Positions 21,377 to 41,286 of a DNA stretch of 41,286 bases are shown here, one piece after another. Made by a program: the position numbers and the translations under genes. The notes beneath the pieces were generated by a model, which made no database searches, had not been told where the DNA came from, and saw only the letters and a list, made by a program, of their open reading frames with translations. The first letter of the stretch is position 1; the number at the start of each line of letters is the position of its first letter. Location of the stretch: positions 1 to 41,286 of the IMG/VR virus record IMGVR_UViG_2851933302_000002. One strand, written 5' to 3'. Origin of the DNA: a virus. Taxonomy: Duplodnaviria > Heunggongvirae > Uroviricota > Caudoviricetes.

Positions 21377-21508
21377 GTTATATTAATTATAACAAATAAT
21401 TTTCTGTGTTATTTTTTCAGGCTATCCCGTCAGAGGGGAAGCCTGTACTGCCGGGGAGCGAATGGAAAACTGATGTGTCCGGTAACTGCGTGTTCTGTGA
21501 ACACCATG

Positions 21509-21879: not shown

Positions 21880-22060
21880 TCCGGCGATCCGACCGGTTAC
21901 GGGGCGGCGACCTCGCGGATTTTCACTATTTATGAAAATTTTCCGGGATCCATGTCCGGTTTCTCTGCAAGTTAACCATATGAAAAATATAAAAACATGC
22001 TTTCCATGAACCGGACATGCGCAAAAAATAGACACTAAAACCGGACATGACCGGTTTTGT
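21880..22060 (+). other. cos: Cohesive end site (cosQ-cosN-cosB), lambda type
   Basis: GGGCGGCGACCT at 21902-21913 with flanks (CCGACCGGTTACG upstream; CGCGGATTTTCACTATTTATGAAAATTTTCCGG downstream) near-identical to my recollection of the lambda cos junction. Downstream are three copies of a 9-bp motif: CATGTCCGG (21951-21959, inverted) and CCGGACATG (22011-22019, 22041-22049). Confidence 0.8.
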
Positions 22061-24507: not shown

Positions 24508-24697
24508 ACTGCAGGCGCTGCGTCAGGCGCGCCTTGATTTATTAACCGGTAAACGGGTGGTGTCTGTCCAGAAAGATGGTCGCAGAATTGAATATACGGC
24601 AGCTTCTCTGGATGAGCTTAACCGGGCGATCAATGATGCGGAGTCGGTACTGGGGACAACCCGCCGTCGCCGTCGTCCGCTGGGAGTGAGGTTATGA
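24491..24697 (+). CDS. W: Head-tail joining protein gpW
   Basis: 68-aa ORF strongly similar to recalled lambda gpW (LLTGKRVVSVQKDGRRIEYTAASLDEL). Confidence 0.9.
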   Translation: MVTVAELQALRQARLDLLTGKRVVSVQKDGRRIEYTAASLDELNRAINDAESVLGTTRRRRRPLGVRL

Positions 24698-26287
24698 AAC
24701 GAACGCCTGTCCTGATTGATGTGAACGGCGTTCCGCTTCGGGAGAGCCTCAGCTACAACGGTGGCGGTGCAGGATTTGGCGGGCAAATGGCAGAGTGGTT
24801 GCCACCCTCGCAGAGTGCCGATGCGGCCCTGCTGCCCGCGTTGCGTCTGGGGAATGCCCGTGCAGATGATCTGGTGCGCAATAACGGAATAGCGGCCAAT
24901 GCGGTGGCCCTGCATAAAGGATCACATTGTCGGGCATATGTTTCTGATCAGCTACCGTCCGAACTGGCGCTGGCTGGGGATGCGGGAGACCGCAGCAAAA
25001 AGCTTTGTCGATGAGGTGGAGGCGGCCTGGTCGGAATACGCCGAAGGGATGTTTGGCGAGATCGACGTGGAAGGAAAACGCACGTTCACGGAATTTATCC
25101 GTGAAGGTGTGGGCGTTCATGCGTTTAACGGCGAAATCTTTGTGCAGCCGGTCTGGGATACGGAAACCACGCAGTTATTCCGTACGCGTTTTAAAGCCGT
25201 GAGTCCGAAACGGGTGGACACGCCTGGACACGGTATGGGGAACCGTTTTCTGCGGGCCGGTGTGGAGGTCGATCGATATGGCCGTGCCGTCGCGTACCAT
25301 ATCTGTGAGGATGATTTTCCGTTCTCTGGTAGTGGACGATGGGAACGGATCCCGCGTGAACTTCCCACCGGGCGTCCGGCCATGCTGCATATTTTCGAGC
25401 CGGTGGAGGACGGGCAGACCCGTGGGGCTAATCAGTTTTACAGCGTCATGGAACGGCTGAAGATGCTCGATTCCCTGCAGGCAACACAGCTTCAGTCGGC
25501 CATAGTGAAGGCGATGTATGCAGCGACGATTGAAAGTGAACTTGATACCGAAAAGGCCTTTGAATATATCGCCGGCGCGCCACAGGAGCAGAAGGATAAT
25601 CCGCTTATTAATATTCTGGAGAAGTTTTCCAGCTGGTATGACACGAATAACGTGACACTGGGCGGTGTCAAAATTCCGCACCTTTTCCCTGGTGATGATC
25701 TGAAACTACAGACTGCGCAGGATTCAGACAATGGATTTTCTGCGCTTGAACAGGCGCTGCTGCGGTATATCGCCGCCGGTCTTGGCGTTTCCTACGAACA
25801 GTTGTCCCGTGATTACTCGAAGGTCAGTTACTCAAGTGCCCGCGCCTCCGCCAATGAGTCGTGGCGCTATTTTATGGGGCGGCGAAAATTTATTGCGGCC
25901 CGGCTGGCCACGCAGATGTTTTCCTGCTGGCTGGAAGAGGCACTTCTTCGGGGGATTATTCGTCCGCCACGGGCACGTTTTGATTTTTATCAGGCGCGAT
26001 CAGCCTGGTCACGGGCAGAGTGGATTGGTGCCGGAAGAATGGCCATTGACGGGCTCAAGGAAGTCCAGGAATCAGTGATGCGCATTGAGGCCGGACTGAG
26101 CACGTATGAGAAAGAGCTGGCGCTGATGGGCGAGGATTATCAGGACATTTTCCGCCAGCAGGTCAGGGAATCTGCTGAGCGGCAAAAAGCCGGACTCTCA
26201 CGTCCGGTGTGGATAGAGCAGGCGTATCAGCAGCAGATAGCGGAGAGTCGTAGGCCGGAAGAGGAGACAACACCACGTGAGACGTAA
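24694..26287 (+). pseudogene. B: Portal protein gpB, disrupted by a 1-nt insertion frameshift near 24919-24920
   Basis: The N-terminal 75 codons are in the frame of 24694 (…NNGIAANAVALHK). The rest (DHIVGHMFLISYRPNWRWLG… to 26287) is in the frame of 24899. Both halves match recalled lambda gpB contiguously; the join falls at CTGCATAAAGGATCAC, which has one extra G. Confidence 0.85.
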
Positions 26288-27782
26288 TCTTTCACACATT
26301 ATTGCCGCAGCATTCAATGAACCGCTGCTTCTGGAGCCCGCCTATGCGCGGGTTTTCTTTTGCGCGCTCGGGCGCGAGATGGGGGCAGCAAGTCTTTCGG
26401 TACCACAACAGCAGGTACAGTTTGATGCTCCCGGAATGCTGGCTGAAACGGACGAGTACATGGCCGGAGGTAAACGACCGGCCCGTGTTTACAGGGTGGT
26501 GAACGGTATTGCTGTACTGCCGGTGACCGGCACGCTGGTGCACCGGCTGGGTGGTATGCGGCCATTTTCCGGAATGACAGGCTATGACGGCATTGTCGCC
26601 TGTCTTCAGCAGGCAATGGCGGATAGCCAGGTGCGGGGTGTACTGCTGGACATTGACAGTCCGGGCGGGCAGGCCGCCGGTGCGTTTGACTGTGCTGACA
26701 TGATTTACCGCCTCCGTCAGCAGAAGCCGGTCTGGGCACTGTGCAATGACACGGCCTGTTCTGCAGCCATGCTGCTGGCGTCGGCCTGCTCCCGACGGCT
26801 GGTTACCCAGACATCCCGTATCGGCTCCATTGGCGTGATGATGAGCCATGTCAGCTATGCCGGTCATCTGGCGCAGGCCGGTGTGGATATCACGCTGATT
26901 TATGCCGGGGCGCACAAGGTGGATGGCAATCAGTTTGAAGCGTTGCCGGCAGAGATTCGCCAGGACATGCAGCAGCGGATTGATGCGGCGCGCCGGATGT
27001 TTGCCGAAAAAGTGGCGATGTATACCGGTCTGTCTGTTGATGCAGTCACGGGAACAGAGGCCGCCGTTTTTGAAGGTCAGTCCGGCATTGAGGCCGGGCT
27101 GGCGGATGAATTAATCAATGCGTCGGATGCCATCAGCGTGATGGCTGCGGCGCTGAACACACATGATACAGGAGGCACTATGCCGCAATTAACTGCAACG
27201 GAAGCTGCCGCGCAGGAGAACCAGCGAGTGATGGGGATCCTGACGTGTCAGGAAGCGAAAGGACGTGAACACCTTGCCACGATGCTGGCAGGACAACAGG
27301 GCATGAGCGTTGAACAGGCCCGGGCGATTCTGACCGCGGCAGCACCACAGCAGCCGGTGGCATCCACGCAGAGTGAAGCCGATCGCATTATGGCGTGTGA
27401 AGAGGCTAAAGGTCGTGAACAACTGGCGGCAACGCTGGCGGCGATGCCGGAGATGACGGTGGAAAAAGCCCGCCCGATCCTTGCGGCTGCACCACTGGCG
27501 GATGCCGGACCCTCACTCCGTGATCAGATTATGGCTCTGGATGAGGCAAAAGGGGCTGAGGCGCAGGCTGAAAAACTGGCGGCGTTTCCCGGAATGACGG
27601 TGGAGGCTGCCCGCGACATTCTGTCCTCATCGCCGGATAAAGCAGAACCGGTCTCTGCATCCACAACCGCCCTGTTTGAACATTTCATGGCGAATCATTC
27701 ACCGGCAGCGGTGCGGGGTGGCGTGTCACAGACGTCAGCAGACGGTGATGCGGACGTGAAAATGCTCATGGCCATGCCATGA
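26277..27782 (+). CDS. C: Prohead protease/scaffold gpC (S49 ClpP-like) with C-terminal Nu3-like repeats
   Basis: 501-aa ORF. S49 protease-like core. The C-terminal part has three tandem copies of about 45 aa (CQEAKGREHLATMLA.. / CEEAKGREQLAATLA.. / LDEAKGAEAQAEKLA..). Confidence 0.9.
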   Translation: MRRNLSHIIAAAFNEPLLLEPAYARVFFCALGREMGAASLSVPQQQVQFDAPGMLAETDEYMAGGKRPARVYRVVNGIAVLPVTGTLVHRLGGMRPFSGMTGYDGIVACLQQAMADSQVRGVLLDIDSPGGQAAGAFDCADMIYRLRQQKPVWALCNDTACSAAMLLASACSRRLVTQTSRIGSIGVMMSHVSYAGHLAQAGVDITLIYAGAHKVDGNQFEALPAEIRQDMQQRIDAARRMFAEKVAMYTGLSVDAVTGTEAAVFEGQSGIEAGLADELINASDAISVMAAALNTHDTGGTMPQLTATEAAAQENQRVMGILTCQEAKGREHLATMLAGQQGMSVEQARAILTAAAPQQPVASTQSEADRIMACEEAKGREQLAATLAAMPEMTVEKARPILAAAPLADAGPSLRDQIMALDEAKGAEAQAEKLAAFPGMTVEAARDILSSSPDKAEPVSASTTALFEHFMANHSPAAVRGGVSQTSADGDADVKMLMAMP

Positions 27783-27818
27783 AGTCAGTGCTGACCATCA
27801 ATATGAGGTTTTTACAAT

Positions 27819-28166
27819 ATGGTAACGAAAACCATCACTGAACAACGTGCAGAAGTACGTATTTTTGCCGGTAATGATCCGGCTCATACCGCCACAGGCA
27901 GCAGCGGGATTTCTCAGGCAACACCGGCACTGACGCCCCTGATGCTGGATGAAGCCACCGGGAAACTGGTGGTCTGGGACGGACAGAAAGCCGGTAGTGC
28001 GGTTGGCATACTGGTACTGCCGCTTGAAGGCACAGAGGCGGTGCTGACGTATTACAAGTCGGGGACCTTTGCGACGGAGGCAATCCGCTGGCCTGAAAGT
28101 GTGGATGAACACAAAAAGGCCAACGCCTTTACCGGCAGTGCCCTGAGTCACGCGGCGCTGCCGTAA
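27819..28166 (+). CDS. D: Head decoration protein gpD
   Basis: 115-aa ORF matching recalled lambda gpD (DPAHTATG...TPLMLD...KLVVWDG...GILV...YKSGTF). Confidence 0.9.
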   Translation: MVTKTITEQRAEVRIFAGNDPAHTATGSSGISQATPALTPLMLDEATGKLVVWDGQKAGSAVGILVLPLEGTEAVLTYYKSGTFATEAIRWPESVDEHKKANAFTGSALSHAALP

Positions 28167-28223
28167 CACGTTATCAGGCCACCGCGTTGGCCTGACTGAT
28201 TTCTTAATGAAAGGAACTGATTT

Positions 28224-29252
28224 ATGGGATTGTTTACGACCCGCCAGTTACTCGGTTATACCGAACAAAAAGTTAAATTCCGTGCGCTGTTTCTGGAGCT
28301 GTTTTTCCGCCGTACGGTGAATTTCCACACCGAAGAGGTGATGCTGGACAAAATTACCGGAAAAACGCCGGTGGCGGCCTATGTCTCCCCGATCGTTGAA
28401 GGAAAAGTGCTTCGCCATCGCGGTGGTGAAACCCGCGTGTTACGTCCGGGCTACGTCAAGCCCAAACACGAATTTAATTACCAGCAGGCGGTTGAGCGCC
28501 TTCCTGGTGAAGATCCGGCTCAGCTGAACGACCCGGCCTACCGTCGTCTGCGTATCATTACCGATAACCTCAAACAGGAAGAGCACGCTATTGTGCAGGT
28601 GGAAGAAATGCAGGCGGTGAATGCCGTGCTGTATGGCAAATACACCATGGAAGGGGATCAGTTTGATACTGTCGAGGTGGATTTCGGGCGCTCTGAAGGA
28701 AATAACATTGAGCAGGCTGACGGTAAAAAATGGTCTGAGCAGGACCGTGATACGTTTGATCCGACGCATGATATTGACCTCTATTGCGATCAGGCCAGCG
28801 GCCTTGTGAATATCGCCATTATGGACGGTACGGTCTGGCGTCTGCTGAATGGCTTTAAGCTGTTCCGCGAAAAACTGGATACCCGTCGCGGCTCAAATTC
28901 ACAACTCGAAACGGCAGTGAAAGACCTGGGGGCGGTGGTGTCCTTCAAGGGGTATTACGGCGATCTGGCCATTGTGGTGGCGAAAACGTCTTATGTGGCA
29001 GAGGACGGTACCGAAAAACGTTATCTGCCGGAGGGCACACTGGTCCTGGGGAATACGGCAGCAGAGGGCATTCGTTGCTATGGTGCCATTCAGGATGCGC
29101 AGGCGTTGTCCGAAGGTGTGGTGGCCTCTTCCCGTTATCCGAAACACTGGCTGACTGTGGGCGATCCGGCCCGTGAATTCACCATGACGCAGTCCGCACC
29201 GCTGATGGTGCTGCCGGATCCGGATGAGTTTGTGGTGGTACAGGTGAAATAA
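28224..29252 (+). CDS. E: Major capsid protein gpE
   Basis: 342-aa ORF with extensive similarity to recalled lambda gpE (YVSPIV, PGYVKPKHE, VEEMQAVNAVL, KLDTRRGSNS, TGDPAREFTM, SAPLM). Confidence 0.95.
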   Translation: MGLFTTRQLLGYTEQKVKFRALFLELFFRRTVNFHTEEVMLDKITGKTPVAAYVSPIVEGKVLRHRGGETRVLRPGYVKPKHEFNYQQAVERLPGEDPAQLNDPAYRRLRIITDNLKQEEHAIVQVEEMQAVNAVLYGKYTMEGDQFDTVEVDFGRSEGNNIEQADGKKWSEQDRDTFDPTHDIDLYCDQASGLVNIAIMDGTVWRLLNGFKLFREKLDTRRGSNSQLETAVKDLGAVVSFKGYYGDLAIVVAKTSYVAEDGTEKRYLPEGTLVLGNTAAEGIRCYGAIQDAQALSEGVVASSRYPKHWLTVGDPAREFTMTQSAPLMVLPDPDEFVVVQVK

Positions 29253-29303
29253 TCCGTGAGCGGGGGCGAAATGCCCCCGTGTCTTTTTTCACAGGAGGCT
29301 GAG

Positions 29304-29687
29304 ATGGCAACAAAAGAAGAAAATCTGAATCGTCTTCGTCAACTGGCTGGCCTGCTGGGGCGCGAGGCGGATATGTCGGGGAGTGCTGCGGATATTGCTC
29401 AACGTGTGTCTGAGTGGGAAGAGGAGCTTGCTGTTTCCCCGGAGGGCATTATGCACTCTGATGAGAGCGGGGCTGATCAAAATCACACAGACGATGGTGA
29501 GCAGTTGAACAACACGGATGCTCCGGATGATGTTAAAGCCGTCCGGGTACGGAAGTGCCTGCAAGTAATGGGGTATTGCCCGGAGACAGGTCGTCCCGTT
29601 GAGCTGGCGTTACGGGGTATGCGTGTTCTGGTGCCATCATCACTGGCAACGGCCATGATACAGCACGGAACGGCTGAATATGCGTGA
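29304..29687 (+). CDS. FI: DNA packaging protein gpFI
   Basis: From the ATG at 29304 with SD AGGAGG. Position and size match lambda FI; acidic middle region. An upstream in-frame ATG at 29256 is less likely. Confidence 0.8.
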   Translation: MATKEENLNRLRQLAGLLGREADMSGSAADIAQRVSEWEEELAVSPEGIMHSDESGADQNHTDDGEQLNNTDAPDDVKAVRVRKCLQVMGYCPETGRPVELALRGMRVLVPSSLATAMIQHGTAEYA

Positions 29688-30033
29688 TTTTCAGAATGCC
29701 TTTGATGCTGCCCTCGCCGGGGTGGACAGTACGATCGTTGAAGTGATGGGGATCCGTGCGCAGTTCACCTCCGGAGCACAACGTGGCGGCGAAGTTCAGG
29801 GGGTTTTTGACGATCCGGAGTCGCTGGGTTTTGCCGGTGGCGGGGTCCGTATTGAAGGAAGCAGCCCGTCATTATTTGTGCGGACGGATACGGTGCGTGC
29901 CGTGCGGCGTGGTGACACGCTGACCATTAACGGCGAGATGTTCTGGGTGGATCGTGTTTCTCCGGATGACGGGGGAAGCTGTTATCTCTGGCTCAACCGT
30001 GGGCAACCACCCGCTGTTAACCGGCGACGATAA
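29680..30033 (+). CDS. FII: Head completion protein gpFII
   Basis: 117-aa ORF near-identical at the C-terminus to recalled lambda gpFII (VDRVSPDDGGSCYLWLNRGQPPAVNRRR). Confidence 0.9.
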   Translation: MRDFQNAFDAALAGVDSTIVEVMGIRAQFTSGAQRGGEVQGVFDDPESLGFAGGGVRIEGSSPSLFVRTDTVRAVRRGDTLTINGEMFWVDRVSPDDGGSCYLWLNRGQPPAVNRRR

Positions 30034-30048
30034 ACGCAGGGTGAAATT

Positions 30049-30624
30049 ATGGCGATAAAAGGGCTTGATCAGGCGATTGATAATCTGAGCCGGGTTCGTA
30101 AAAACGCCATTCCGGCGGCTTCAGCAATGACGATTAACCGCGTGGCCACAACGGCGATTAATCAGTCTTCATCACAGGTTGCCCGGGAGACAAAGGTACG
30201 CCGGAAACTGGTTAAGGAACGGTCCAGACTGAAACGGGCCACGGTCAGAAATCCGAATGCAAAAATTATCGTTAACCGCGGTGATCTCCCTGTGATTAAG
30301 CTGGGGATCAGAATGCTGGGGCGTCGTCCGGACAGCATACTCAAAGCCGGTCAGCATCGTTATCAGCGGGCATTTATCCAGCGATTAAATAATGGGCGCT
30401 GGCATGTTATGCAACGTCTTCCCCAGGCCAGATATGAGGAGGGCAATGACGACAAGGGAAGGAAAAAGCGTAATCGCCTTCCCATTCAGGTGGTGAAAAT
30501 CCCGATGGCGGCCCCACTGAAACAGGCATTTGATGAGAATGTTGACCGTATCCGGCGTGAACGCCTGCCTAAAGAACTGGCATACGCGCTGAAACAACAA
30601 CTGAGGATTGCGATAAAACGATGA
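30049..30624 (+). CDS. Z: Tail completion protein gpZ
   Basis: 191-aa ORF with N- and C-termini matching recalled lambda gpZ (MAIKGL..., ...[22 protein letters not shown]). Confidence 0.9.
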   Translation: MAIKGLDQAIDNLSRVRKNAIPAASAMTINRVATTAINQSSSQVARETKVRRKLVKERSRLKRATVRNPNAKIIVNRGDLPVIKLGIRMLGRRPDSILKAGQHRYQRAFIQRLNNGRWHVMQRLPQARYEEGNDDKGRKKRNRLPIQVVKIPMAAPLKQAFDENVDRIRRERLPKELAYALKQQLRIAIKR

Positions 30625-31016
30625 AACACACTGACATTCGTGCCGCAGTGCTGGATGCACTCGAGCAGCATGAACACGGGGCGACGCTGTTTGATGGTCG
30701 CCCCGTTGTTTTTGACGAAGAGGATTTTCCTGCGATCGCGGTTTATCTGACGGATGCAGAGTATACCGGTGAAGAGCTGGATGCAGATACCTGGCGGGCC
30801 ACGCTGCATATTGAGGTGTTTTTACCGGCACAGGTACCGGATTCAGAGCTTGATCAGTGGATGGAAAGCCGGATTTACCCGGCGATGACTGCGATCCCGG
30901 CACTGGCAGGACTGATTACCACGATGGTTACGCAGGGCTATGAGTATCGTCGTGATGACGATATGGCGTTATGGAGCTCTGCGGATCTGACTTATTCCAT
31001 TACATACGAGATGTGA
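30621..31016 (+). CDS. U: Tail terminator protein gpU
   Basis: 131-aa ORF highly similar to recalled lambda gpU throughout. Confidence 0.9.
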
Positions 31017-31023
31017 GGACGAT

Positions 31024-31770
31024 ATGGCAACACCAAATCCCCTGGAGCCGGTAAAAGGTGCCGGTACCACTCTGTGGGTTTACAACGGCAAGGCTGATGC
31101 TTATGCAAACCCGTTGTCAGACGATGACTGGCAGCGACTGGCTAAGGTGAAGGATCTGACGCCGGGCGAGATGACGGCTGAACCCTACGATGATAACTAC
31201 CTGGATGATGAAGACGCGGACTGGACCGCGACCGGGCAGGGACAGAAATCTGCAGGTGATACCAGTTTTACGCTGGCCTGGAAACCGGGAGAGGAAGGTC
31301 AGAAAGGGCTTATAGGCTGGTTTGAAAGCGGCGATGTCCGGGCCTATAAAATCCGTTTTCCGAATGGCACGGTGGATGTGTTTCGTGGCTGGGTCAGCAG
31401 TATCGGTAAGGCCGTGACGGCGAAAGAAGTGATCACCCGCACGGTGAAAGTCACTAACGTGGGTAAACCTTCTGTAGCGGAAGAACGCAGCAAAATTACG
31501 CCGGTCACTGCGATTAAGGTAACGCCGACAGGTACGGTTGAAAAAGGGAAAACAACCACCCTGACCGTTACTGTGGAACCGGAAAATGCAACGGATAAGA
31601 CATTCAGGGCGATTTCCGCCGATCCATCAAAAGCCACCATTAGCGTGAAAGATATGACGATTACTGTGACGGGGGTTAAGGATGGAAAAGTCAGCATCCC
31701 TGTGATTTCCGGTAATGGTCAGTTTGCTGCGGTGGCTGAAATTACCGTTAATAATGTGCCGGGTGGCTAA
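31024..31770 (+). CDS. V: Major tail tube protein gpV (with C-terminal Ig-like domain)
   Basis: 248-aa ORF highly similar to recalled lambda gpV ([48 protein letters not shown]). Confidence 0.9.
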
Positions 31771-31788
31771 AGAGCTGAGAGATAAGCG

Positions 31789-32220
31789 ATGTTCCTGAAA
31801 ACAGAACAATTTGAATATAACGGTGTATCCGTCACGCTTTCTGAGCTGTCTGCGCTGCAGCGTATTGAGCATCTTGCCCTCCTGAAACGGCGGGCAGAAG
31901 AGGCTGAAGCCAGCGGCAACCTGCAGGTGAGTGTGGAAGATCTTGTCAGAACCGGCGCGTTTCTGGTGGCGATGTCCCTGTGGCATAACCATCCACAGAA
32001 AACGCAGTCACCGTCAATGAATGAGGCCGTGATGAAGATAGAGCAGGAAGTGCTCACCACCTGGCCTGCCGATGCCATTGCCCGGGCGGAAGACGTGGTG
32101 TTGTGCCTGTCCGGGATGATCGAAGCTGTTCGTCCGGATACTGATATTACTGAAGTGGCGAAAAATAACACGCTGACTGATGATGATTTTTCTGCGGGAA
32201 AGTCTTCGACGGCGAGCTGA
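31789..32220 (+). CDS. G: Tail assembly chaperone gpG
   Basis: 143-aa ORF in the lambda G position. Ends just after the slippery heptamer GGGAAAG (32196-32202). Confidence 0.85.
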   Translation: MFLKTEQFEYNGVSVTLSELSALQRIEHLALLKRRAEEAEASGNLQVSVEDLVRTGAFLVAMSLWHNHPQKTQSPSMNEAVMKIEQEVLTTWPADAIARAEDVVLCLSGMIEAVRPDTDITEVAKNNTLTDDDFSAGKSSTAS

Positions 32221-32660
32221 ACTTTGCCCTCAGACTGGCGCGTGAGATGGGGAGACCCGACTGGCGCGCCATGCTTGCCGGGATGACATCCACCGAATAT
32301 GCCGACTGGCACCGTTTTTACCGCACGCATTATTTTCAGGATACCCAGCTGGATATGCATTTTTCCGGGCTGACGTACGCTGTACTCAGCCTGTTTTTTT
32401 GCGATCCGGATATGCATCCCTCTGATTTCAGTCTGCTTGTCCCCCGGCATGAGGAAGAGCAGGTGGAGAGGCCGGATGAGGACAAAATGCTGATGCAGAA
32501 AGCGGCAGGACTTGCCGGAGGCGTCCGGTTCGGTGGGGACGGAGGGCGCGATATTTTATCGTCTGCGGATGTGGCGGATGTCATGGTGGATGATGCCGCA
32601 TTAATGATGGCTTCAGCGGGGATTCCGGGAGGTGTGAGATATGTCCCAGCCGGTTGGTGA
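31789..32660 (+). CDS. GT: Tail assembly chaperone gpGT (product of programmed -1 ribosomal frameshift at GGGAAAG)
   Basis: Slippery sequence G GGA AAG at 32196-32202 in the G frame. A -1 slip moves into the T frame (…[26 protein letters not shown]…), which runs to 32660. Same arrangement as lambda G/T. Confidence 0.8.
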
Positions 32661-35600
32661 TCTTGTTATTGACCTTAGTCTGGATGCTGTCCGTTTCGAT
32701 GAGCAGATGAGCCGGGTAAGGCGTCATTTTTCAGGTCTGGATACCGACGCCAGAAAAACCGCCAGTGCTGTTGAACAGGGCCTGAGCCGCCAGGCGCTGG
32801 CTGCACAAAAAGCCGGGATTTCCGTCGGGCAGTATAAAGCGGCCATGCGAACCCTGCCCGCACAGTTTACGGATATCGCCACGCAGCTTGCCGGTGGTCA
32901 GAATCCCTGGCTGATCCTGCTGCAACAGGGCGGTCAGGTGAAGGACTCCTTCGGCGGGATGATCCCCATGTTCAGGGGGCTTGCCGGTGCGATCACCCTG
33001 CCGATGGTCGGGGTCACCTCGCTGGCGGTGGCGACAGGTGCGCTGGTGTACGCCTGGTACCAGGGAGATTCCACGCTTTCAGCGTTTAATAAAACCCTGG
33101 TTCTTTCCGGTAATCAGTCCGGACTGACTGCCGATCGCATGCTGACGCTCTCCAGAGCCGGACAGGCCGCAGGGCTGACGTTTAACCAGGCGAGTGAGTC
33201 ACTGGCAGCCATGGTGAATGCCGGTGTGCGTGGTGGTGAACAGTTTGATGCCATCAACCAGAGTGTCGCGCGTTTTGCTTCTGCATCCGGTGTGGAGGTG
33301 GACAAGGTTGCAGAGGCTTTCGGAAAACTGACCACTGACCCGACGTCGGGGCTGATTGCGATGGCGAAGCAGTTCCATAACGTGACGGCGGAGCAGATTG
33401 CGTATGTTGCTCAGTTGCAGCGTTCCGGCGATGAAACCGGGGCATTGCAGGCGGCGAACGAGGCCGCAACGAAAGGGTTTGATGACCAGACCCGCCGCCT
33501 GAAAGAGAACATGGGCACGCTGGAGACCTGGGCAGACAGGACAGCGCGGGCATTCAAATCCATGTGGGATGCGGTGCTGGATATTGGTCGTCCTGATACC
33601 GCGCAGGAGATGCTGATTAAGGCAGAGGCTGCGTTTAAGAAAGCAGACGACATCTGGAATCTGCGCAAGGATGATTATTTTGTTAACGATGAAGCGCGGG
33701 CGCGTTACTGGGATGATCGTGAAAAGGCCCGTCTTGCGCTTGAAGCCGCCCGAAAGAAGGCTGAGCAGCAGACTCAACAGGACAAAAATGCGCAGCAGCA
33801 GAGCGATACCGAAGCGTCACGGCTGAAATATACCGAAGAGGCGCAGAAGGCTTACGAACGGCTGCAGACGCCGCTGGAGAAATATACCGCCCGTCAGGAA
33901 GAACTGAACAAGGCACTGAAAGACGGGAAAATCCTGCAGGCGGATTACAACACGCTGATGGCGGCGGCGAAAAAGGATTATGAAGCGACGCTGAAAAAGC
34001 CGAAACAGTCCGGCGTGAAGGTGTCTGCGGGCGATCGTCAGGAAGACAGTGCTCATGCTGCCCTGCTGACGCTTCAGGCAGAACTCCGGACGCTGGAGAA
34101 GCATGCCGGAGCGAATGAGAAAATCAGCCAGCAGCGCCGGGATTTGTGGAAGGCAGAAAGTCAGTTCGCGGTACTGGAGGAGGCGGCACAACGTCGCCAG
34201 CTGTCCGCACAGGAGAAATCCCTGCTGGCGCATAAAGATGAGACGCTGGAGTACAAACGCCAGCTGGCTGCACTTGGCGACAAGGTTACGTATCAGGAGC
34301 GCCTGAACGCGCTGGCGCAGCAGGCGGATAAATTCGCACAGCAGCAACGGGCAAAACGGGCCGCCATTGATGCAAAAAACCGGGGGCTGACTGACCGGCA
34401 GGCAGCGCGGGAAGCCACGGAACAGCGCCTGAAGGAACAGTATGGCGATAATCCTCTGGCGCTGAATAACGTCATGTCAGAGCAGAAAAAGACCTGGGCG
34501 GCTGAAGACCAGCTTCGCGGGAGCTGGATGGCAGGCCTGAAGTCCGGCTGGAGTGAGTGGGAAGAGAGCGCCACGGACAGTATGTCGCAGGTAAAAAGTG
34601 CAGCCACGCAGACCTTTGATGGTATTGCACAGAATATGGCGGCGATGCTGACCGGCAGTGAGCAGAACTGGCGCAGCTTCACCCGCTCCGTGCTGTCCAT
34701 GATGACAGAAATTCTGCTTAAGCAGGCAATGGTGGGGATTGTCGGGAGTATCGGCAGCGCTATTGGCGGGGCTGTTGGTGGCGGCGCATCCGCGTCAGGC
34801 GGTACAGCCATTCAGGCAGCTGCGGCGAAATTCCATTTTGCGACCGGAGGATTTACGGGAACCGGCGGCAAATATGAGCCAGCGGGGATTGTTCACCGTG
34901 GTGAATTTGTCTTCACGAAGGAGGCGACCAGCCGGATTGGTGTCGGCAACCTGTATCGTCTGATGCGCGGGTATGCGGAAGGTGGTTATGTCGGCGGTGC
35001 CGGAAGTCCGGCGCAGATGCGGCGGGCGGAAGGTATCCGGTTTGAGCAGAACAACAGCGTGGTGATTCAGAACGACGGTATCAACGGACAGGCCGGGCCG
35101 CAGCTGATGAAAGCGGTGTATGAGATGGCCCGTAAAGGTGCGCAGGATGAGATCCAGTCCGTCACCGACGGCGTGAAGGTAAAAGTGAGCCGTGTTCCTG
35201 ACGGCGTTGCTGAATACAGCGTGTGGGGGCTGAAGCTGCCGACGCTGCGCCAGCGCCTGTTCCGCTGCGTGAGTATCCGTGAGAACGACAACGGCACGTA
35301 TGCCATCACCGCCGTGCAGCATGTACCGGAAAAAGAGGCCATCGTGGATAACGGGGCGCACTTTGACGGCGACCAGAGCGGCACGGTGAACGGGGTCACA
35401 CCGCCAGCAGTGCAGCATCTGACTGCCGAAGTCACCGCAGACAGCGGGGAATACCAGGTGCTGGCGCGCTGGGATACGCCGAAGGTGGTGAAGGGTGTGA
35501 GCTTTATGCTTCGCCTGACCGTGGCAGCGGATGACGGCAGTGAGCGGCTGGTCAGCACGGCCCGGACGACGGAAACCACATACCGCTTCACGCAACTGGC

Positions 35601-36945
35601 GCTGGGAAACTACAGGCTGACAGTCCGGGCGGCAAATGCCTGGGGGCAGCAGGGCGATCCGGCATCGGTATCGTTCCGGATTGCCGCCCCGGCAGCGCCG
35701 TCGCGGATTGAGCTGACGCCGGGCTATTTTCAGATAACTGCCACGCCGCATCTTGCGGTTTATGATCCGACGGTACAGTTTGAGTTCTGGTTCTCGGAAA
35801 CGCGGATTACCGATATCAGGCAGGTTGAAACCACAGCCCGCTACCTTGGCACGGGGCTGTACTGGATAGCCGCCAGTATCAATATCAAACCGGGCCATGA
35901 TTATTACTTTTATATCCGCAGTGTGAACACCGTTGGCAAATCGGCATTCGTGGAGGCCGTCGGTCGGGCGAGCGATGATGCGGAAGGTTACCTGGATTTT
36001 TTCAAAGGCAAGATAACCGAATCCCATCTCGGTAAAGAGCTGCTGAAAAAAGTCGACCTGACGGAGGATAACGCCAGCAGACTGGATGAGTTTTCGAAAG
36101 AGTGGAAGGACGCTAACGATAAATGGAATGCTATGTGGGGCGTCAAAATTGAGCAGACCAAAGACGGCAAACATTATGTCGCGGGTATTGGCCTCAGCAT
36201 GGAGGACACGGAGGAAGGCAAGCTGAGCCAGTTTCTGGTTGCCGCCAATCGTATCGCGTTTATTGACCCGGCAAACGGGAATGAAACGCCGATGTTTGTG
36301 GCGCAGGGCAACCAGATATTCATGAACGACGTGTTCCTGAAACGCCTGACGGCTCCCACCATTACCAGCGGTGGAAATCCGCCGGCATTTTCCCTGACAC
36401 CGGACGGAAAGCTGACCGCTAAAAATGCGGATATCAGCGGTAATGTGAATGCAAATTCAGGGACGCTCAACAACGTCACGATTAACGAGAACTGTCGGGT
36501 TCTGGGAAAACTGTCCGCGAACCAGATTGAAGGCGATCTCGTTAAAACAGTGGGCAAAGCTTTCCCCCGGGACTCCCGTGCACCGGAGCGGTGGCCATCA
36601 GGGACCATTACCGTCAGGGTTTATGACGATCAGCCGTTTGACCGGCAAATTGTTATTCCGGCGGTGGCTTTCAGCGGTGCCAGACATGAGCGGGAGAATA
36701 GCGATACTTATTCGTCATGCCGCCTGATAGTGAAGAAAAACGGGGCTGAAATTTATAACCGAACGGCTCTGGATAATACGCTGATATACACGGGTGTTAT
36801 TGATATGCCTGCAGGCAGTGGCGTAATGACACTGGAGTTTTCTGTATCAGCATGGTGGGTAAATGGTTGGTATCCCACAGCAAGTATCAGCGATTTGCTG
36901 GTTGTTGTGATGAAGAAAGCCACTGCAGGCATCACGATTAGCTGA
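32641..36945 (+). CDS. In-frame fusion of tape measure protein (gpH, N-terminal about 840 aa) to the C-terminal half of central tail fibre/host specificity protein (gpJ); deletion derivative
   Basis: 1434-aa ORF. The first about 840 aa track recalled lambda gpH nearly residue by residue up to …[10 protein letters not shown]. The sequence then continues …[23 protein letters not shown]… through Fn3-like and C-terminal receptor-binding regions that match recalled lambda gpJ. No M, L, K or I genes are present anywhere in the window. Confidence 0.85.
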
Positions 36946-36964
36946 ATTTTATAACCCAGATACG

Positions 36965-36988
36965 GGCGCCAGAAATGGCGCCTTTTTT
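36965..36988 (+). terminator. Rho-independent terminator after the H-J fusion gene
   Basis: GGCGCC-AGAAAT-GGCGCC hairpin followed by TTTTTT. Confidence 0.8.
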
Positions 36989-37012
36989 ATTGCAGAAAAG
37001 CGAGAGGTAATT

Positions 37013-37612
37013 ATGCGTAAATTATGTGCTGTTATTCTGTCCGCAGTAGTCTGGCTGGTTGCCGCTGGTACGCCAGCGAGTGCAGCAGAGCATCAGTCCA
37101 CACTAAGCTCCGGGTATATTCAGTCCCATACTGATATGCCCGGCAACGATGACCTGAAGGGCATTAACGTGAAATACCGTTATGAATTTACGGACACGCT
37201 GGGGCTGGTGACGTCATTCAGTTATGCTGGAGACAAGAATCGCCAGATTACCCGTTACAGTGATACCCGCTGGCATGAAGATTCAGTGCGTAACCGCTGG
37301 TTCAGCATGATGGCGGGGCCATCTGTGCGCGTGAATGAGTGGTTCAGCGCATATGCGATGGCGGGTGTGGCTTACAGCCGTGTTTCGACTTTCTCCGGGG
37401 ATTATCTCCGCGTAACTGACAACAAGGGGAAAACGCACGATGTGCTGACCGCAAGTGATGATGGTCGCCACAGTAACACGTCTCTGGCGTGGGGGGCTGG
37501 CGTGCAGTTTAACCCGACCGAATCCGTGGCCATTGATATTGCTTATGAAGGCTCCGGCAGTGGTGACTGGCGCACTGACGGTTTTATCGTGGGTGTCGGT
37601 TATAAATTCTGA
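37013..37612 (+). CDS. lom: Outer membrane protein Lom (Ail/PagC/OmpX family)
   Basis: 199-aa ORF with a signal peptide and a beta-barrel pattern ending in ...GVGYKF. Position after J as in lambda. Confidence 0.9.
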
Positions 37613-37628
37613 TTAGCAGTGTTATGAC

Positions 37629-37655
37629 AGCCCGCATATTCTGGCGGGCTTTTTT
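37629..37655 (+). terminator. Rho-independent terminator after lom
   Basis: AGCCCGC-ATATTCTG-GCGGGCT hairpin followed by TTTTT. Confidence 0.8.
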
Positions 37656-37666
37656 GTGGGGTGGAT

Positions 37667-39496
37667 ATGGCAGCAGTAAAAATCTCAGGTGTGCTGAAAG
37701 ATGGTGCGGGAAAACCAATACAGAACTGCACTATTCAACTGAAGGCAAAACGTAACAGCACAACGGTTGTGGTGAACACGGTGGCCTCAGAAAATCCGGA
37801 TGAAGCTGGACGTTACAGCATGGATGTTGAGTATGGTCAGTACAGCGTCACCCTGCTGGTTGAAGGTTTTCCGCCTTCACATGCCGGGACCATTACCGTT
37901 TATGAAGGTTCCAGACCAGGTACGCTGAATGATTTTCTGACTGCCCCCGACGAAGGCGACCTGAAGCCAGATGTGGTGAAACGATTTGAAGATTTGACAA
38001 GTCAGGCGCGACGAAGTGCAGATGTGGCAATATCAGCGACAAAAAGGGCAGAAGCGTTACTGTCTGAAATGCAGGGAATAGCCGATAGTTTTCCCGGTTT
38101 GCGCTTTGAGAACTTTGACGACATCGTGAGTCGTTGCACTACTGCAATGTTAAAACTGGAACAACCCGAGGTTGTTGATACATCAATATCTTTAAAAATA
38201 AAAGAAAATATCGATTTTAATTATGTCGGTGCAGTTAACGGATATTGCGATATTTCTGAACCAGAAAAGTATAAAGTCGAAATGTATGCTTATACAACCG
38301 GAGAGTATTTTAACGGCGACGCTAATTTGAATAGTGACGGAACTTTCTATTTCAGACGTTGCTGGACGGGAGCAAAACAGTTTCGTCTTATTCGGATTGA
38401 GGATAATGCGTGGATCACAACGCTGGAGTTTCCACTGCTCATTCGTAGCTACTGGATGCCGGAGGACGCAGACCCCGAAGTGATCAGGGTGATGAAAGAT
38501 CGGTGTTACACGTATGACCAGGCGCTGGCAGCACTGGCGTTGATGGTTCAGCGACATGAGGCTGTAGAAAGATACGTTGCGGGCTTGTGTGCGCTTGTTG
38601 ATGAAAACGGTGGAGTAAAGTTTTTTGTTAACAGGCTGTCTGCCATGTCACCGCGTACCTATTACCGCTTGGGCAATGCGGCATGGGTTTATTATGCTCT
38701 TGCTTTCTATCTGGAGAAGTATCCGGACGGTACTCAGACTGCGCGGGTCAGAGAAAAGCTATTGGCAGGCATTGCCTGGCTGGATACTTTTCTGGTGAGC
38801 ACACCAGGCGACCTGCGTGAAGGCCTGTATAAAGGGGGGCAGGGGCGTTATGTGGACGGCAATTTTGATGAAACTTTCGTCGCCGAATGGTGCGCACTGG
38901 AGCATAACGTTGATATCTGGTTTTTGTTTGAACTGATGGGACGGCTGGGATTTGACGGTTTCAGTGAGCGGGCTGACAGGCTGGCAAAGAGTATCATCAG
39001 AGGTCTGTGGGTGGAAGATGAAGGCCGATTTCGACAGGGGGTTCATTCAACCCACTATGACAACGCAGCGGCGCTGGATCAGTCTTCCTGGGGCGGATTG
39101 TTTGTTGCCAATATTGATGCTGAGAAAGCGGCTAAGTGCCGAAAATATATGGGGCGTTTTTTATTTGGTACGAGGGAAACCACGGGTTACACACCGTACC
39201 ACCCTGATTATGGTTATAGTGGTCACAGCCGTGGCGTGTGGGTGGAAGGAACGGCAGGTGTGGCACTTTTTGAGCGCAAGCTGGGTAATGAGCTGAATGC
39301 GGTGAATCTTGTGGCAGCAATGGCTCCACTTTTTAATGAGTACGGTTATCGTGATTCTTGCGATAACCTGGCATACGATGTGCTGCCTTCCTGGCCATCA
39401 ACAACAAACACTGCCTGGATCATTCTGGCTGTAAAGCCAGATAATTTCTGGTTAGTGGATTCGCCAGAAATGGATGTAGGGACAATCCGCTATTGA
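37667..39496 (+). CDS. stf: Side tail fibre-like protein: Stf N-terminal tail-attachment domain fused to an unrelated C-terminal domain, possibly enzymatic
   Basis: The N-terminal about 100 aa (MAAVKISGVLKDGAGKPIQNCTIQLKAKRNSTTVVVNTV…GFPPSHAGTITVYEGS) match the recalled lambda Stf N-terminus. The remaining about 500 aa lack the fibrous repeats of lambda Stf and are rich in Trp/Tyr helical segments (YYRLGNAAWVYYALAFYLEKY, WVEGTAGVALFE), suggestive of an alpha/alpha-toroid fold. An AT-rich stretch (38160-38420) marks the junction. Confidence 0.7.
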   Translation: MAAVKISGVLKDGAGKPIQNCTIQLKAKRNSTTVVVNTVASENPDEAGRYSMDVEYGQYSVTLLVEGFPPSHAGTITVYEGSRPGTLNDFLTAPDEGDLKPDVVKRFEDLTSQARRSADVAISATKRAEALLSEMQGIADSFPGLRFENFDDIVSRCTTAMLKLEQPEVVDTSISLKIKENIDFNYVGAVNGYCDISEPEKYKVEMYAYTTGEYFNGDANLNSDGTFYFRRCWTGAKQFRLIRIEDNAWITTLEFPLLIRSYWMPEDADPEVIRVMKDRCYTYDQALAALALMVQRHEAVERYVAGLCALVDENGGVKFFVNRLSAMSPRTYYRLGNAAWVYYALAFYLEKYPDGTQTARVREKLLAGIAWLDTFLVSTPGDLREGLYKGGQGRYVDGNFDETFVAEWCALEHNVDIWFLFELMGRLGFDGFSERADRLAKSIIRGLWVEDEGRFRQGVHSTHYDNAAALDQSSWGGLFVANIDAEKAAKCRKYMGRFLFGTRETTGYTPYHPDYGYSGHSRGVWVEGTAGVALFERKLGNELNAVNLVAAMAPLFNEYGYRDSCDNLAYDVLPSWPSTTNTAWIILAVKPDNFWLVDSPEMDVGTIRY

Positions 39497-39823
39497 CTCT
39501 CTTGTTGTTTGATAAACCGACAAAAGGATAAATATCAGCGATCCATTCTGTGCTGTTTGATTGTGCGCTCCCCGCTCAGAATTGCGCGTCAATTAGCCTA
39601 TAAAAAATCGCGAAGATACAATACGTACTTCATTGCGCTTGAACACCCCAGGCATAATATCGCTGGATTGAAATGTTCGGACATGGCAAGCGAATGAATA
39701 TGCCGTGGTGGGGCGGTTTTGATCCGCGCGCGTGGGATGTGGCAAGCCTGATGGATTTTGCTGTGCCGGTGGTGGCGTGTCTGCTGGTCTGGCTGTTGGT
39801 TAATCGTGGGTGAAAAAAGGTGA

Positions 39824-39952
39824 GCTGTATATGCAACGGAGGAAGAAACCTCGTTGCTGGAAGCCTGGAAAAAGTATCGGGTGTTGCTGAACCGTGTTGA
39901 TACATCAACTGCCCCTGATATTGAGTGGCCTGTGAACCCTGTCAGGGAGTAA
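39824..39952 (+). pseudogene. Tail fibre assembly protein (Tfa) 3' remnant
   Basis: Frame without a start codon encodes …[38 protein letters not shown], the conserved Tfa C-terminus. Duplicated as the 3' end of the intact-looking gene at 40732..41001. Confidence 0.6.
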
Positions 39953-40006
39953 TCATTGGGATTATGCCGCAGCACGTCTTAAGCAAGAACGTGCTGCGGT
40001 TGGATG

Positions 40007-40675
40007 CTATTTTTTCCCTGAAGCGGAAAACATTACTACAGTACCTTGAACCTTGGTTTTAACATTCTCGAAATGCTCTGAGAGTATATGTGTTAAGCCT
40101 TCTTCGGAATCTTTTGTGTTTGAAAAGATGCCTTTCTGATTGTAAATGCGCATCAGTTTTTGACCGAAGCTATTGTGCACAACGCCGTCACCAAGAATTG
40201 TGGCTCCGTATAGAGTTCCATCGTCAGTTAAGGCCTGCGCCGCATTGCGTATTACACAGCTTTTTGTAGATATATTTCCAGGCAGGCAGTGAAGAAGGTA
40301 AAACATGGAAATGGAATCAAATTGACCATGTAACGCCGCGGGATAAGGATCAAAAACATCATGGCTAATTTTATGTTTAATTTTTGATTCCCCAGCCCTT
40401 GTCGATGCCGCGTTCAGGCTAGCTTCGTTCAAATCCATTAAAGATATCAGACTACTCTCAGGTACGTGAGTAAGGTAAAACCCAGTTCCAACACCAATAT
40501 CCAGATGGTTGTTACCTAAATGTTCCAGAAAGTGTGGAAGAAGGTGTTCCTTTGTAGGACATCCCCATGCAAGCCGATTTGATACTCCCAAAACCCACCA
40601 GTCATAAAGCTTTAGGGTAAGTGGTGTGTAAATTTTAGCCCCATCATCTGTGTTTTTTTTCATTAATTTCACCAT
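40007..40675 (-). CDS. Class I SAM-dependent methyltransferase (small-molecule/RNA type), cargo gene
   Basis: 222-aa ORF on the opposite strand to the tail genes. Motif I HLDIGVGTGFY with a Rossmann-fold pattern. Flanked by direct repeats of the tfa 3' end. Confidence 0.7.
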   Translation of the reverse strand: MVKLMKKNTDDGAKIYTPLTLKLYDWWVLGVSNRLAWGCPTKEHLLPHFLEHLGNNHLDIGVGTGFYLTHVPESSLISLMDLNEASLNAASTRAGESKIKHKISHDVFDPYPAALHGQFDSISMFYLLHCLPGNISTKSCVIRNAAQALTDDGTLYGATILGDGVVHNSFGQKLMRIYNQKGIFSNTKDSEEGLTHILSEHFENVKTKVQGTVVMFSASGKK

Positions 40676-40731
40676 GTTATAGTTTTATTTGTGAATTAAA
40701 TCAATTATGGCGATGAATTACAAGGGGTTAA

Positions 40732-41001
40732 ATGCTGCCGCAGCATAGCGATATTGAAATAGCCTGGTATGCTTCGATACAGCAGGAGCCGAATGGCTGG
40801 AAGACCGTCACCACACAGTTCTACATCCAGGAATTCAGTGAGTATATTGCGCCACTGCAGGATGCTGTAGATCTGGAAATCGCAACGGAGGAAGAAAGAT
40901 CGTTGCTGGAGGCATGGAATAAATATCGGGTATTGTTGAATCGTGTTGATACATCAACTGCACCTGATATTGAGTGGCCTGCAAATCCTGTCAGGGAGTA
41001 A
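40732..41001 (+). CDS. Tail fibre assembly protein (Tfa-like), short form
   Basis: 89-aa ORF whose C-terminus ([32 protein letters not shown]) is the conserved Tfa C-terminal motif. May be N-terminally truncated relative to canonical Tfa of about 190 aa. Confidence 0.55.
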
Positions 41002-41004
41002 TCA

Positions 41005-41286
41005 TTGGGATTATGCCGCAGACACGTCGTATGCAGGAACGTGCTGCGGTTAGTTTGTGAGCTTTCGATAGTGGTTGTTATTTTTGCCCTTATTTGTTCC
41101 GGAGGCCCTGGTTCAATGGTCCGTCTGCCCCCTGTGGTGATGTCAGCAAAATCAGCCACTGCGCGAACCACAATAGCCCGGGAAGATGCTGAAGATCACC
41201 AGGTAAAGCTGTCAGCGCAGAAACTGGAAGAACTGCTCGCATCAATGGTTAAGGATGAGGTTGATCGCAATGATGGGATTTATTGA
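41005..41286 (+). CDS. Hypothetical protein at window edge
   Basis: 93-aa ORF ending at the last base of the window. The likely start is an internal Met (MVRLPP…). Function unknown. Confidence 0.3.
   Translation: MGLCRRHVVCRNVLRLVCELSIVVVIFALICSGGPGSMVRLPPVVMSAKSATARTTIAREDAEDHQVKLSAQKLEELLASMVKDEVDRNDGIY

Follow-up and report, generated by a model that had tools for sequence, protein, structure and literature searches.

A single open reading frame of a lambdoid prophage of E. coli joins the tape measure gene H to the 3' half of gene J, and this H::J join is correctly read as a real and inactivating deletion, by all appearances a recent one, in a decaying prophage. The prophage was analyzed in a 41,286-nt stretch of DNA (hereafter the window), for which an initial annotation had described one 1434-aa ORF that starts like gpH and ends like gpJ; Pfam domains and alignments to lambda agree with that description. 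The fusion very probably goes back to one microhomology-mediated deletion of ~4.05 kb in a lambdoid prophage of the ompW family, which would have left a tail-defective H::J remnant that is in frame by chance. The features of the fusion are as follows.

32641..36945, + strand: H::J fusion ORF, ATG start, 1434 aa plus stop (ORF list and translation, Pfam domain order)
32641..35151, + strand: gpH part, codons 1-837 of the normally 853-aa tape measure protein (alignments)
35149..35151, + strand: junction, GAG, a 3-nt microhomology common to H codon 837 and J codon 534
35152..36945, + strand: gpJ part, J residues 535-1131 plus stop (identity to MS 21-1 J, Pfam)
36550..36942, + strand: C-terminal receptor-binding domain, fusion aa 1304-1434 (Ig_GpJ_C positions 1-135 of 135)

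Composition of the fusion protein

By exact-sequence look-up, the product of the fusion ORF is identical to RefSeq entry WP_047340612.1, which is named only "phage tail tape measure protein". The exact chimeric protein is thus already in RefSeq, while its fusion nature is absent from its name.

The proximal part is gpH-like, as initially annotated. It matches residues 1-841 of PDB 8iyk_H, and it contains TMP_2 (PF06791; aa 54-256, E=8.8e-69) and Tape_meas_lam_C (PF09718; aa 627-701, E=7.1e-21), both of which lambda gpH (853 aa; PDB 8IYK chain H) has as well; over residues 1-841 of both proteins, the amino acid identity is ~92%. At the DNA level, window positions 32650-35157 correspond to lambda 10551-13058 in gene H (91.4% identity), and the 3' 1.5 kb of H (33600-35148) is 97.6% identical to the intact 853-aa H of strain DA33135. 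As expected for a gpH gene, and as in lambda, the ORF begins directly after the G/T tail chaperone genes with an overlapping start. In contrast to lambda gpH, however, the sequence stops at residue 837 of 853, so that the last 16 residues are absent and 597 foreign C-terminal residues follow instead; an intact H relative runs on past residue 837 as ...DELRLQLRDGGLLSGSGR. The gpH C-terminus is therefore incomplete, with the break falling within the C-terminal coiled-coil helix, which comprises gpH residues 818-842 and is seated on the gpI tripod/plug (PMC10721106).

The distal part proved to be gpJ-like, and the possibility that the last ~600 aa are not related to J is contradicted by the intact prophage of E. 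coli MS 21-1, whose J residues 534-1131 are 100% identical to the distal 598 aa, as well as by a match to residues 531-1131 of PDB 8iyk_J. Window positions 35149-36495 correspond to lambda 17104-18450 in gene J (93.3% DNA identity), and fusion residues 837-1433 share 81.6% amino acid identity with residues 534-1131 of lambda gpJ (1132 aa; PDB 8IYK chain J, 8XCG). Four Pfam domains, each exceeding its gathering score, succeed one another in this part: Ig_J (913-1017), Ig_J_second (1019-1121), Phage_Tail_Tip (1149-1275), and Ig_GpJ_C (1304-1434). Like lambda gpJ, it thus comprises FN3/Ig domains, the central fibre, and a complete C-terminal receptor-binding domain, with lom next to it; the initial description of the receptor-binding region as intact is borne out by coverage of the entire Ig_GpJ_C model. 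Based on the published domain map (PMC10721106), however, HDII, the HDII-insertion, HDIII, and most of HDIV are gone, and what remains of HDIV is its tail end, including half of the beta-sandwich insert (gpJ residues 483-569), so that the conical hub with gpL, gpI, and gpM could not be formed. No Phage-tail_3 domain was found in the fusion by Pfam, whereas another fusion that retains J from residue 313 (P0018, see below) has one. The last 151 aa match PDB 9wca ('A8 gpJ') with E=1.9e-50 and lambda gpJ with 4e-29; the receptor-binding tip belongs to the gpJ family, yet is only distantly like the LamB-binding tip of lambda.

The junction and its origin

A three-way alignment of the window with an H parent and a J parent placed the junction at the GAG of 35149..35151, after which H codon 837 is followed by J codon 535 in an unbroken frame. 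When lambda itself is the reference, the two alignments, to H and to J, overlap across 35149-35157, which is the low edge of the region (35150-35180) where the junction had been expected. The predicted loss of about 4 kb agrees with the ~4.05 kb measured against both lambda (4054 bp missing in lambda coordinates) and the intact MS 21-1 prophage (4055 bp extra at the junction point). It comprises the entire genes M, L, K, and I, flanked by the final 16 codons of H on one side and J codons 1-534 on the other; these are the parts listed as missing in the initial annotation, and the MS 21-1 prophage carries all of them. Searches with M, L, K, I, and J residues 1-533 by tblastn returned zero matches in any frame of the 41-kb window, and thus none in alternative frames within the ORF. 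No inserted sequence and no mobile element were found at the join, and the short microhomology is as in illegitimate recombination. Both breaks lie inside folded elements, namely the gpH coiled coil and the gpJ hub beta-sandwich, rather than at domain borders, given the placement of gpH 818-842 and gpJ 483-569 in the published structure (PMC10721106). H and J are one frame apart, which a deletion length congruent to 1 mod 3 compensates, so that the remnants read as one 1434-aa ORF. By chance, such an in-frame outcome is expected in 1 of 3 cases, and there are no signs that the frame was selected for.

An assembler that misjoined H and J in a genome that really has M, L, K, and I would produce the same picture, and repeats of this kind are known to lead assemblers astray: lambdoid prophages match at a median of 2 and at up to 16 places per E. 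coli genome. We nevertheless regard an artefact as highly improbable. The fusion protein was found in two assemblies, a 13.3-kb draft contig (GCA_002911335.1) and a 5.0-Mb contig; 2 SNPs separate the draft contig from the window along 13.3 kb, one of them synonymous within the ORF, and the contig has the same junction 8.4 kb and 4.9 kb from its ends. Moreover, only 3 nt are common to H and J at the join, leaving no repeat to collapse, and three further, different H::J joins are present in independent assemblies, including the complete genome CP010119.1. The two assemblies are related and could have a lineage in common, but not an error of assembly, and the agreement of their sequences makes a misassembly unlikely. 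Beyond these two, a 551-nt junction probe had a contiguous match in 0 of 5,426 complete RefSeq E. coli genomes, and the 33-nt junction sequence had no match in IMG/VR viral contigs or in GTDB species-representative genomes. Strains E8, E1648, E1654, and E1739 cover 97% of the probe and were rejected, because their prophage is another one, further decayed and with an L'-'J deletion.

The intact sibling of the prophage, located at ompW in MS 21-1 (NZ_CP146670.1, 2353070-2398400) and also found in B1172, has the identical gene order from integrase to tail fibre and the same protein for J 534-1131. It differs in being annotated with H, M, L, K, I, and a full-length J, in its intact portal, and in its H of 857 aa (83% amino acid identity). 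Along the DNA, the window is nearly identical to MS 21-1 from 1 to 27.4 kb (about 14 mismatches) and again from 35149 to its end (99.85% identity). The H-side block in between (~27.5-35.15 kb) represents another allele, with 68-99% identity per 250-nt window and 68-86% in the last 1.3 kb of H, before identity returns to 100% exactly at the junction. As the H-side allele differs from that of MS 21-1, a simple deletion in an MS 21-1-type genome is not the whole history.

This mosaic would also fit an origin in one step from two lambdoid genomes, in which a homologous crossover at ~27.5 kb, near the protease/capsid genes, was combined with an illegitimate join of a donor H at codon 837 to a resident J at codon 534. 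Such a hybrid would account for a divergent block that starts at ~27.5 kb and ends exactly at the junction, and for an H allele whose nearest relatives are other prophages (DA33135, 97.6% over 33600-35148; NZ_OZ547117.1, 98.8%, and CE10, 98.5%, over the whole block). However, the same picture results if the right end of an ordinary homologous mosaic block lay within the 4 kb that were later deleted, and CE10-type members of the same ompW prophage family combine this H allele with an intact M-J region. A join between genomes at 3 nt is also less likely than an intramolecular deletion, given the abundant homology of H and J. No direct intact ancestor was found for the 27400-35148 block (best match only 98.8%); we consider the hybrid possible but unlikely, and the tail module would be defective under either origin. 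In the favored scenario, an illegitimate deletion at the GAG microhomology in a prophage of the family that integrates next to ompW would have taken the 3' end of H, M, L, K, I, and the 5' half of J in a single event, and the remnants would by chance read through. The event appears to be recent, because the J remnant is 100% identical to an intact J protein and the fusion occurs in only two close assemblies.

Tail assembly, neighboring genes, and recurrence of H::J fusions

Apart from the losses at the fusion site, all genes compared from int to lom are full length with the exception of the portal gene. The neighboring features are listed below.

24694..26287, + strand: portal gene, split by +1 A (two-frame tblastn match, alignment to MS 21-1, Pfam)
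30049..32660, + strand: tail genes Z, U, V, G, and T, intact, upstream of the fusion (tblastn full length, 97-100% amino acid identity to MS 21-1)
31789-32220: G
32247-32660: T, overlapping the fusion start by 20 nt, same as in the intact sibling prophage
37013..37612, + strand: lom-like outer-membrane protein gene (Ail/Lom protein of MS 21-1, 100% amino acid identity), which immediately follows the fusion, just as it follows J in intact phages

In the portal gene, alignment to MS 21-1 revealed a change from CATAAGG to CATAAAGG at about 24916-24918, and Phage_portal_2 positions 2-47 and 47-354 are found in two separate ORFs. This frameshift, which was missed initially, is a candidate for a second inactivating lesion, though +1 A in a short A-run could be a sequencing error.

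The lambda tail tip is built from gpM, gpL, gpI, and gpJ (PMC10721106). The chimera would keep the gpH body, but the end of its C-terminal helix, which in the tail tip docks on the gpI plug, would be lost together with all gpJ hub domains that nucleate the tip complex. With these parts as well as M, L, K, and I lost, no tail initiator and hence no tails should be formed unaided. The initial conclusion that tail tip assembly is impossible is consequently expected to hold for the present prophage by itself, but not in general, since co-resident lambdoid prophages can complement such defects (PMC2669165). Its classification as a defective remnant stands: M, L, K, I, the 3' end of H, and the 5' half of J are absent in comparison to MS 21-1, established lambda tail assembly needs these parts, and the portal frameshift strengthens the case. 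The fusion ORF would be transcribed only within the late operon, after induction, and the protein it encodes is most likely a by-product without function.

Three further in-frame H::J fusions were found in E. coli, with junctions H833/J601, H777/J765, and H426/J313. They encode proteins of 1398 aa (P0016), 1144 aa (P0017), and 1246 aa (P0018, in the complete genome CP010119.1). All share with the present fusion the context E-FI-FII-Z-U-V-G-T-[H::J], the absence of M, L, K, and I, microhomology of 1-3 nt, and deletion lengths congruent to 1 mod 3; lom follows wherever the fetched locus reaches (L006; probably as a partial gene ending L008). As their breakpoints and prophage backgrounds differ, they are independent events and not relatives of the present fusion. 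As P0016 matches the whole query (100% coverage, 79% identity), it was considered as a conserved older form of the present fusion, but was rejected because its junction is H833/J601 and not H837/J535. Each fusion is rare, occurring in 1-7 contigs, compared to tens of thousands of sequences in normal-H clusters. Taken together, the differing junctions and the 1-3 nt microhomology point to recurrent illegitimate deletion rather than to a designed or conserved fusion.

A selected, functional chimera, which would, for example, interfere with tail assembly in lambdoid phages that superinfect the cell or prevent transcriptional polarity on downstream lom/stf, might be suspected from at least four occurrences of in-frame H::J fusions in E. 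coli, from the complete receptor-binding half, and from the synonymous nature of the sole SNP by which the two known copies of the ORF differ. We find this very unlikely: every fusion has its own junction and is rare, both cuts lie within folded elements and not at domain borders, and no divergence has accumulated after the event, so that maintenance has yet to be put to the test. Furthermore, a protein search shows only in-frame deletions, for which reason recurrence is expected under neutrality, and one synonymous SNP has no statistical weight. In its most specific form, selection would act on a dominant-negative decoy against rival lambdoid phages, and in-frame H::J fusions would then be mildly favored in E. 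coli rather than purely accidental. The chimera would be produced upon activation of the late genes, also where this activation comes from the Q protein of a relative that superinfects the cell; the G/GT chaperones and tail-tube subunits would be sequestered by its gpH body, and its gpJ fibre half would co-trimerise with incoming gpJ, poisoning the assembly of the rival tail. We consider this decoy very unlikely as well.

Place among decaying prophages

Cryptic K-12 prophages such as Rac, Qin, and DLP12 are lambdoid prophages disabled in morphogenesis genes. Likewise, prophages Sp3-Sp15 of E. coli O157 Sakai are lambdoid, with morphogenesis genes disabled by deletions, frameshifts, or IS insertions, while integration, regulation, and lysis modules are kept (PMC2669165). 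Compared to all of these, the present prophage is still early in its decay. The O157 Sakai paper (PMC2669165) mentions no H::J fusion, its text having 0 occurrences of the word "fusion", and our literature searches found no paper devoted to one.

The fusion represents ordinary prophage decay and implies no new biology; its relevance lies mainly in annotation and in the scoring of prophages. H-to-J deletions have arisen repeatedly and independently in lambdoid prophages of E. coli. The present case is a clean and dated instance of prophage decay in its early phase, for which an intact, near-identical sibling serves as reference. As RefSeq calls this fusion and at least one other H::J fusion "phage tail tape measure protein", approaches that count the tail genes present may score a prophage as intact although its tail-tip module is gone. 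At the same time, the retained 3' half of J, lom, and the tail-fibre remnants are available for recombination into incoming phages.

An H::J fusion produced by deletion

A single ORF (32641..36945, + strand, ATG start, 1434 codons), identified from the ORF list and translation of the window, begins like the lambda tape measure protein gpH and ends like gpJ. This agrees with the initial annotation and was borne out by the assignment of Pfam domains from both proteins.

Pfam domains of the fusion protein (fusion residues; domain; type)
54-256; TMP_2; lambda tape-measure domain
627-701; Tape_meas_lam_C; lambda tape-measure domain
913-1017; Ig_J; gpJ domain
1019-1121; Ig_J_second; gpJ domain
1149-1275; Phage_Tail_Tip; gpJ domain
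1304-1434; Ig_GpJ_C; gpJ domain

The same division was given by PHROGs (tape-measure family, residues 1-841; tail-fibre/J family, residues 834-1434) and by PDB entry 8IYK, in which fusion residues 1-841 pair with the same residues of lambda gpH, and 834-1433 with 531-1131 of lambda gpJ. The chimera is a full member of neither the gpH nor the gpJ family: the complete C-terminus of the former and the hub domains of the latter were not found in it.

In an alignment to the lambda reference (J02459), window 32650-35157 matched lambda 10551-13058 (gene H, 91.4% identity) and window 35149-36495 matched lambda 17104-18450 (gene J, 93.3% identity), so that the distal part is indeed J-like; the two alignments share a 9-nt overlap at the join. 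When closer proxies for the parents were used, namely H of strain DA33135 (97.6% identical over window 33600-35148) and J of the near-identical, intact sibling prophage in E. coli MS 21-1 (identical), the overlap narrowed to a 3-nt GAG at 35149-35151, which corresponds to H codon 837 and J codon 534. The fusion point therefore stands as initially proposed, with the exact overlap at the low edge of the estimated 35150-35180. Neither inserted DNA nor a mobile element was found at the join. The expected frame-preserving loss of about 4 kb was likewise recovered, with the missing DNA amounting to 4055 bp in MS 21-1 and 4054 bp in lambda coordinates, a length congruent to 1 mod 3 that offsets the one-frame shift between H and J.

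The exact fusion protein is present in RefSeq (WP_047340612.1) on two contigs of 5,006,568 bp and 13,285 bp (GCA_002911335.1, PQAZ01000077.1). The latter, a draft contig, covers window 26776-40060 with the junction well within it, and differs from the window only at positions 26950 and 34365, the second difference being synonymous (A575). Since two assemblies agree on a join at which only 3 nt are common to both sides, misassembly would be a very unlikely origin. The junction was detected in 0 of 5,426 complete RefSeq E. coli genomes and neither in IMG/VR nor in GTDB representative genomes; the lesion is limited to a narrow lineage, and the lack of any divergence between the J remnant and an intact J indicates a recent deletion.

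The intact sibling prophage and the history of the deletion

The window begins at the end of the integrase gene and represents a whole prophage. The same prophage adjoins ompW in MS 21-1 (NZ_CP146670.1) and B1172, each 100% identical over window 1-22000. Its annotated order in MS 21-1 is int, xis, exo, dicB, regulators, replication genes and Q; a DNA methyltransferase, three tRNAs, an esterase, lysis genes, terminase, portal and protease; D, E, FI, FII, Z, U, V, G and T; and finally H (857 aa), M, L, K, I, J (1131 aa) and lom. When every MS 21-1 protein was used as a tblastn query against the window, M, L, K and I had no match in any frame, which confirmed their proposed absence and left no copy in alternative frames of the fusion ORF. 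J was matched only by its residues 534-1131 (100% identity), while the remaining compared genes from int to lom, portal aside, are present at essentially full length.

Further features of the prophage are listed here as side observations.

10181-10846, queH (epoxyqueuosine reductase) gene
4537-4588 (-), 4177-4362 (-) and 10914-11236 (+), Qin/Rac-like early features: DicF sRNA (61 bits), dicB, ydfC and a hokD/sok type I toxin-antitoxin locus (sok, 120 bits)
15450-15699 (+), three tRNA genes downstream of the DNA methyltransferase gene: CAT anticodon (tRNA-Ile according to PGAP in MS 21-1), Arg-TCG and Arg-TCT
15774-16451 (+), two copies of the STnc100 sRNA family after the tRNAs (15774-15964 and 16242-16451)
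16674-18527, SASA-family esterase gene (617 aa), after the STnc100 copies
21001-22000, GC dip (0.40 vs ~0.52 in the flanks) between lysis genes and terminase, with small ORFs only, including a minus-strand YlcI/YnfO-family gene

Window 1-27.4 kb is nearly identical to MS 21-1 (~14 mismatches, two 1-nt indels), as is the part from 35149 to the end (99.85%; 9 mismatches in 6138 nt, without gaps). Over ~27.5-35.15 kb, H included, the prophage carries another allele (250-nt windows with 68-99% identity), and this block stops exactly at the deletion junction; FI, within this block, is only 50% identical at the amino acid level. The nearest intact relatives of the block (window 27500-35157) reach 98.4-98.8% (NZ_OZ547117.1, MSB1_4I, CE10), and with 98.8% as the best match no direct ancestor was found.

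Two routes could have led to this arrangement. Probably, homologous exchange would first have brought a CE10-like block, spanning the head-tail genes up to and past H, into an ancestor, and a later deletion would have taken away the right-hand end of this block. A single event between two genomes, combining one homologous with one illegitimate crossover, is the less probable route. The coincidence of the block end with the junction is compatible with it, as it is with two steps. CE10-type members of the ompW prophage family carry the window-type H allele (98.5% identity) together with an intact M-J region, which counts in favour of two steps. The functional outcome is the same under both.

Tail function and further lesions

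In the established lambda pathway, gpV polymerises on an initiator, a tip complex of J, I, L, K, H and M. As the hub domains are missing from the chimera and M, L, K and I from the prophage genome, no tail could be started, and we strongly infer that the prophage would be tail-defective on its own, in line with its initial description as a defective remnant. The lambda tip consists of a ring of gpM together with gpL, gpI and gpJ, each as a trimer; residues 818-842 of gpH, its C-terminal helix, form a coiled coil seated on the gpI tripod, and gpJ HDIV holds an extra beta-sandwich (residues 483-569) (PMC10721106). Mapped on this structure, the H cut (residue 837) falls within the coiled coil and the J cut (residue 534) in the middle of the HDIV beta-sandwich, neither at a domain border. 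Most lambdoid prophages of E. coli O157 Sakai have morphogenesis genes hit by deletion, frameshift or IS insertion, and some defective ones are still mobilised with the help of co-resident prophages (PMC2669165). The claim that tail tip assembly is impossible thus holds for the prophage alone and needs the qualifier "without a helper".

The fusion retains the native start of H, which overlaps T. It would therefore be transcribed and translated as H is, as part of the Q-dependent late operon and only once the prophage is induced. The receptor-binding region is complete, as had been noted, but only distantly related to that of lambda.

36490-36942, + strand, receptor-binding tip of J

Against PDB 9wca "A8 gpJ" this tip scores E=1.9e-50, against lambda gpJ only E=4e-29; its much closer relation to the former suggests a receptor other than LamB.

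Two further regions are damaged, or putatively so.

24694-26287, + strand, portal gene
37661-41286, side tail-fibre region

Compared to the intact MS 21-1 copy, the portal gene contains an extra A at ~24916-24918 (CATAAGG to CATAAAGG), which divides the 530-aa protein into ORFs 24694-25014 (106 aa) and 24899-26287 (462 aa). If real, this would be a second lethal lesion, hitting head assembly; alternatively, it is a homopolymer sequencing error. The position is outside the independent draft contig, so that the extra A is known from one assembly only. The side tail-fibre region is decayed in the window and MS 21-1 alike (truncated stf, tfa fragments, opposite-strand methyltransferase gene), so that decay there is older than the H-J deletion. 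It comprises a 611-aa ORF with phage_tail_N only (aa 5-130), repeated tail-fibre-assembly fragments (39833-40001 and 40882-41051, ~90% to their MS 21-1 counterparts) and a SAM-dependent methyltransferase gene (40007-40675, opposite strand).

Recurrence of H::J fusions

Three other chimeras of tape measure protein and J head the list in a search of a large protein collection.

H::J fusions of E. coli (length; source; junction in lambda numbering)
This window; 1434 aa; 2 contigs; H837/J535
P0016; 1398 aa; 7 contigs; H833/J601
P0017; 1144 aa; one Logan contig; H777/J765
P0018; 1246 aa; complete genome CP010119.1; H426/J313

Each directly follows E-FI-FII-Z-U-V-G-T, with lom next wherever the fetched locus reaches, and each junction shows 1-3 nt of microhomology. 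The deletions in P0016, P0017 and P0018 (4264, 4924 and 4621 bp in lambda coordinates) are all congruent to 1 mod 3. At NCBI, P0016 and P0018 go under the names of ordinary tail proteins; P0017 comes from Logan and is unnamed. A fourth, different lesion, an out-of-frame L'-'J deletion plus several others, occurs in E8, E1648, E1654 and E1739. The E8 locus (NZ_CM180514.1 1245087-1260062), whose arrangement the other three share, is a more decayed lambdoid prophage with internal deletions portal'-'FII, Z'-'H and L'-'J; its C-terminal J remnant of ~617 aa is similar in extent to that of the window.

The fusions arose independently, by accident. No other targets in the tail module are as large as H and J, and deletions that break the frame escape a protein search, so that recurrence favours routine deletional decay and counts against a conserved or designed fusion. 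That the chimera was selected as a dominant-negative decoy acting on competing lambdoid phages, with recurrence and the kept frame as the only points in its favour, is highly improbable. The initial observation is thereby confirmed and its interpretation supported: the H::J fusion is a well-documented but ordinary, recent in-frame deletion in a decaying prophage, which resembles the defective lambdoid prophages of O157 Sakai. As the chimera carries the plain name "phage tail tape measure protein", it represents an annotation pitfall, and with an intact sibling to hand, it provides a neat example of early prophage decay.
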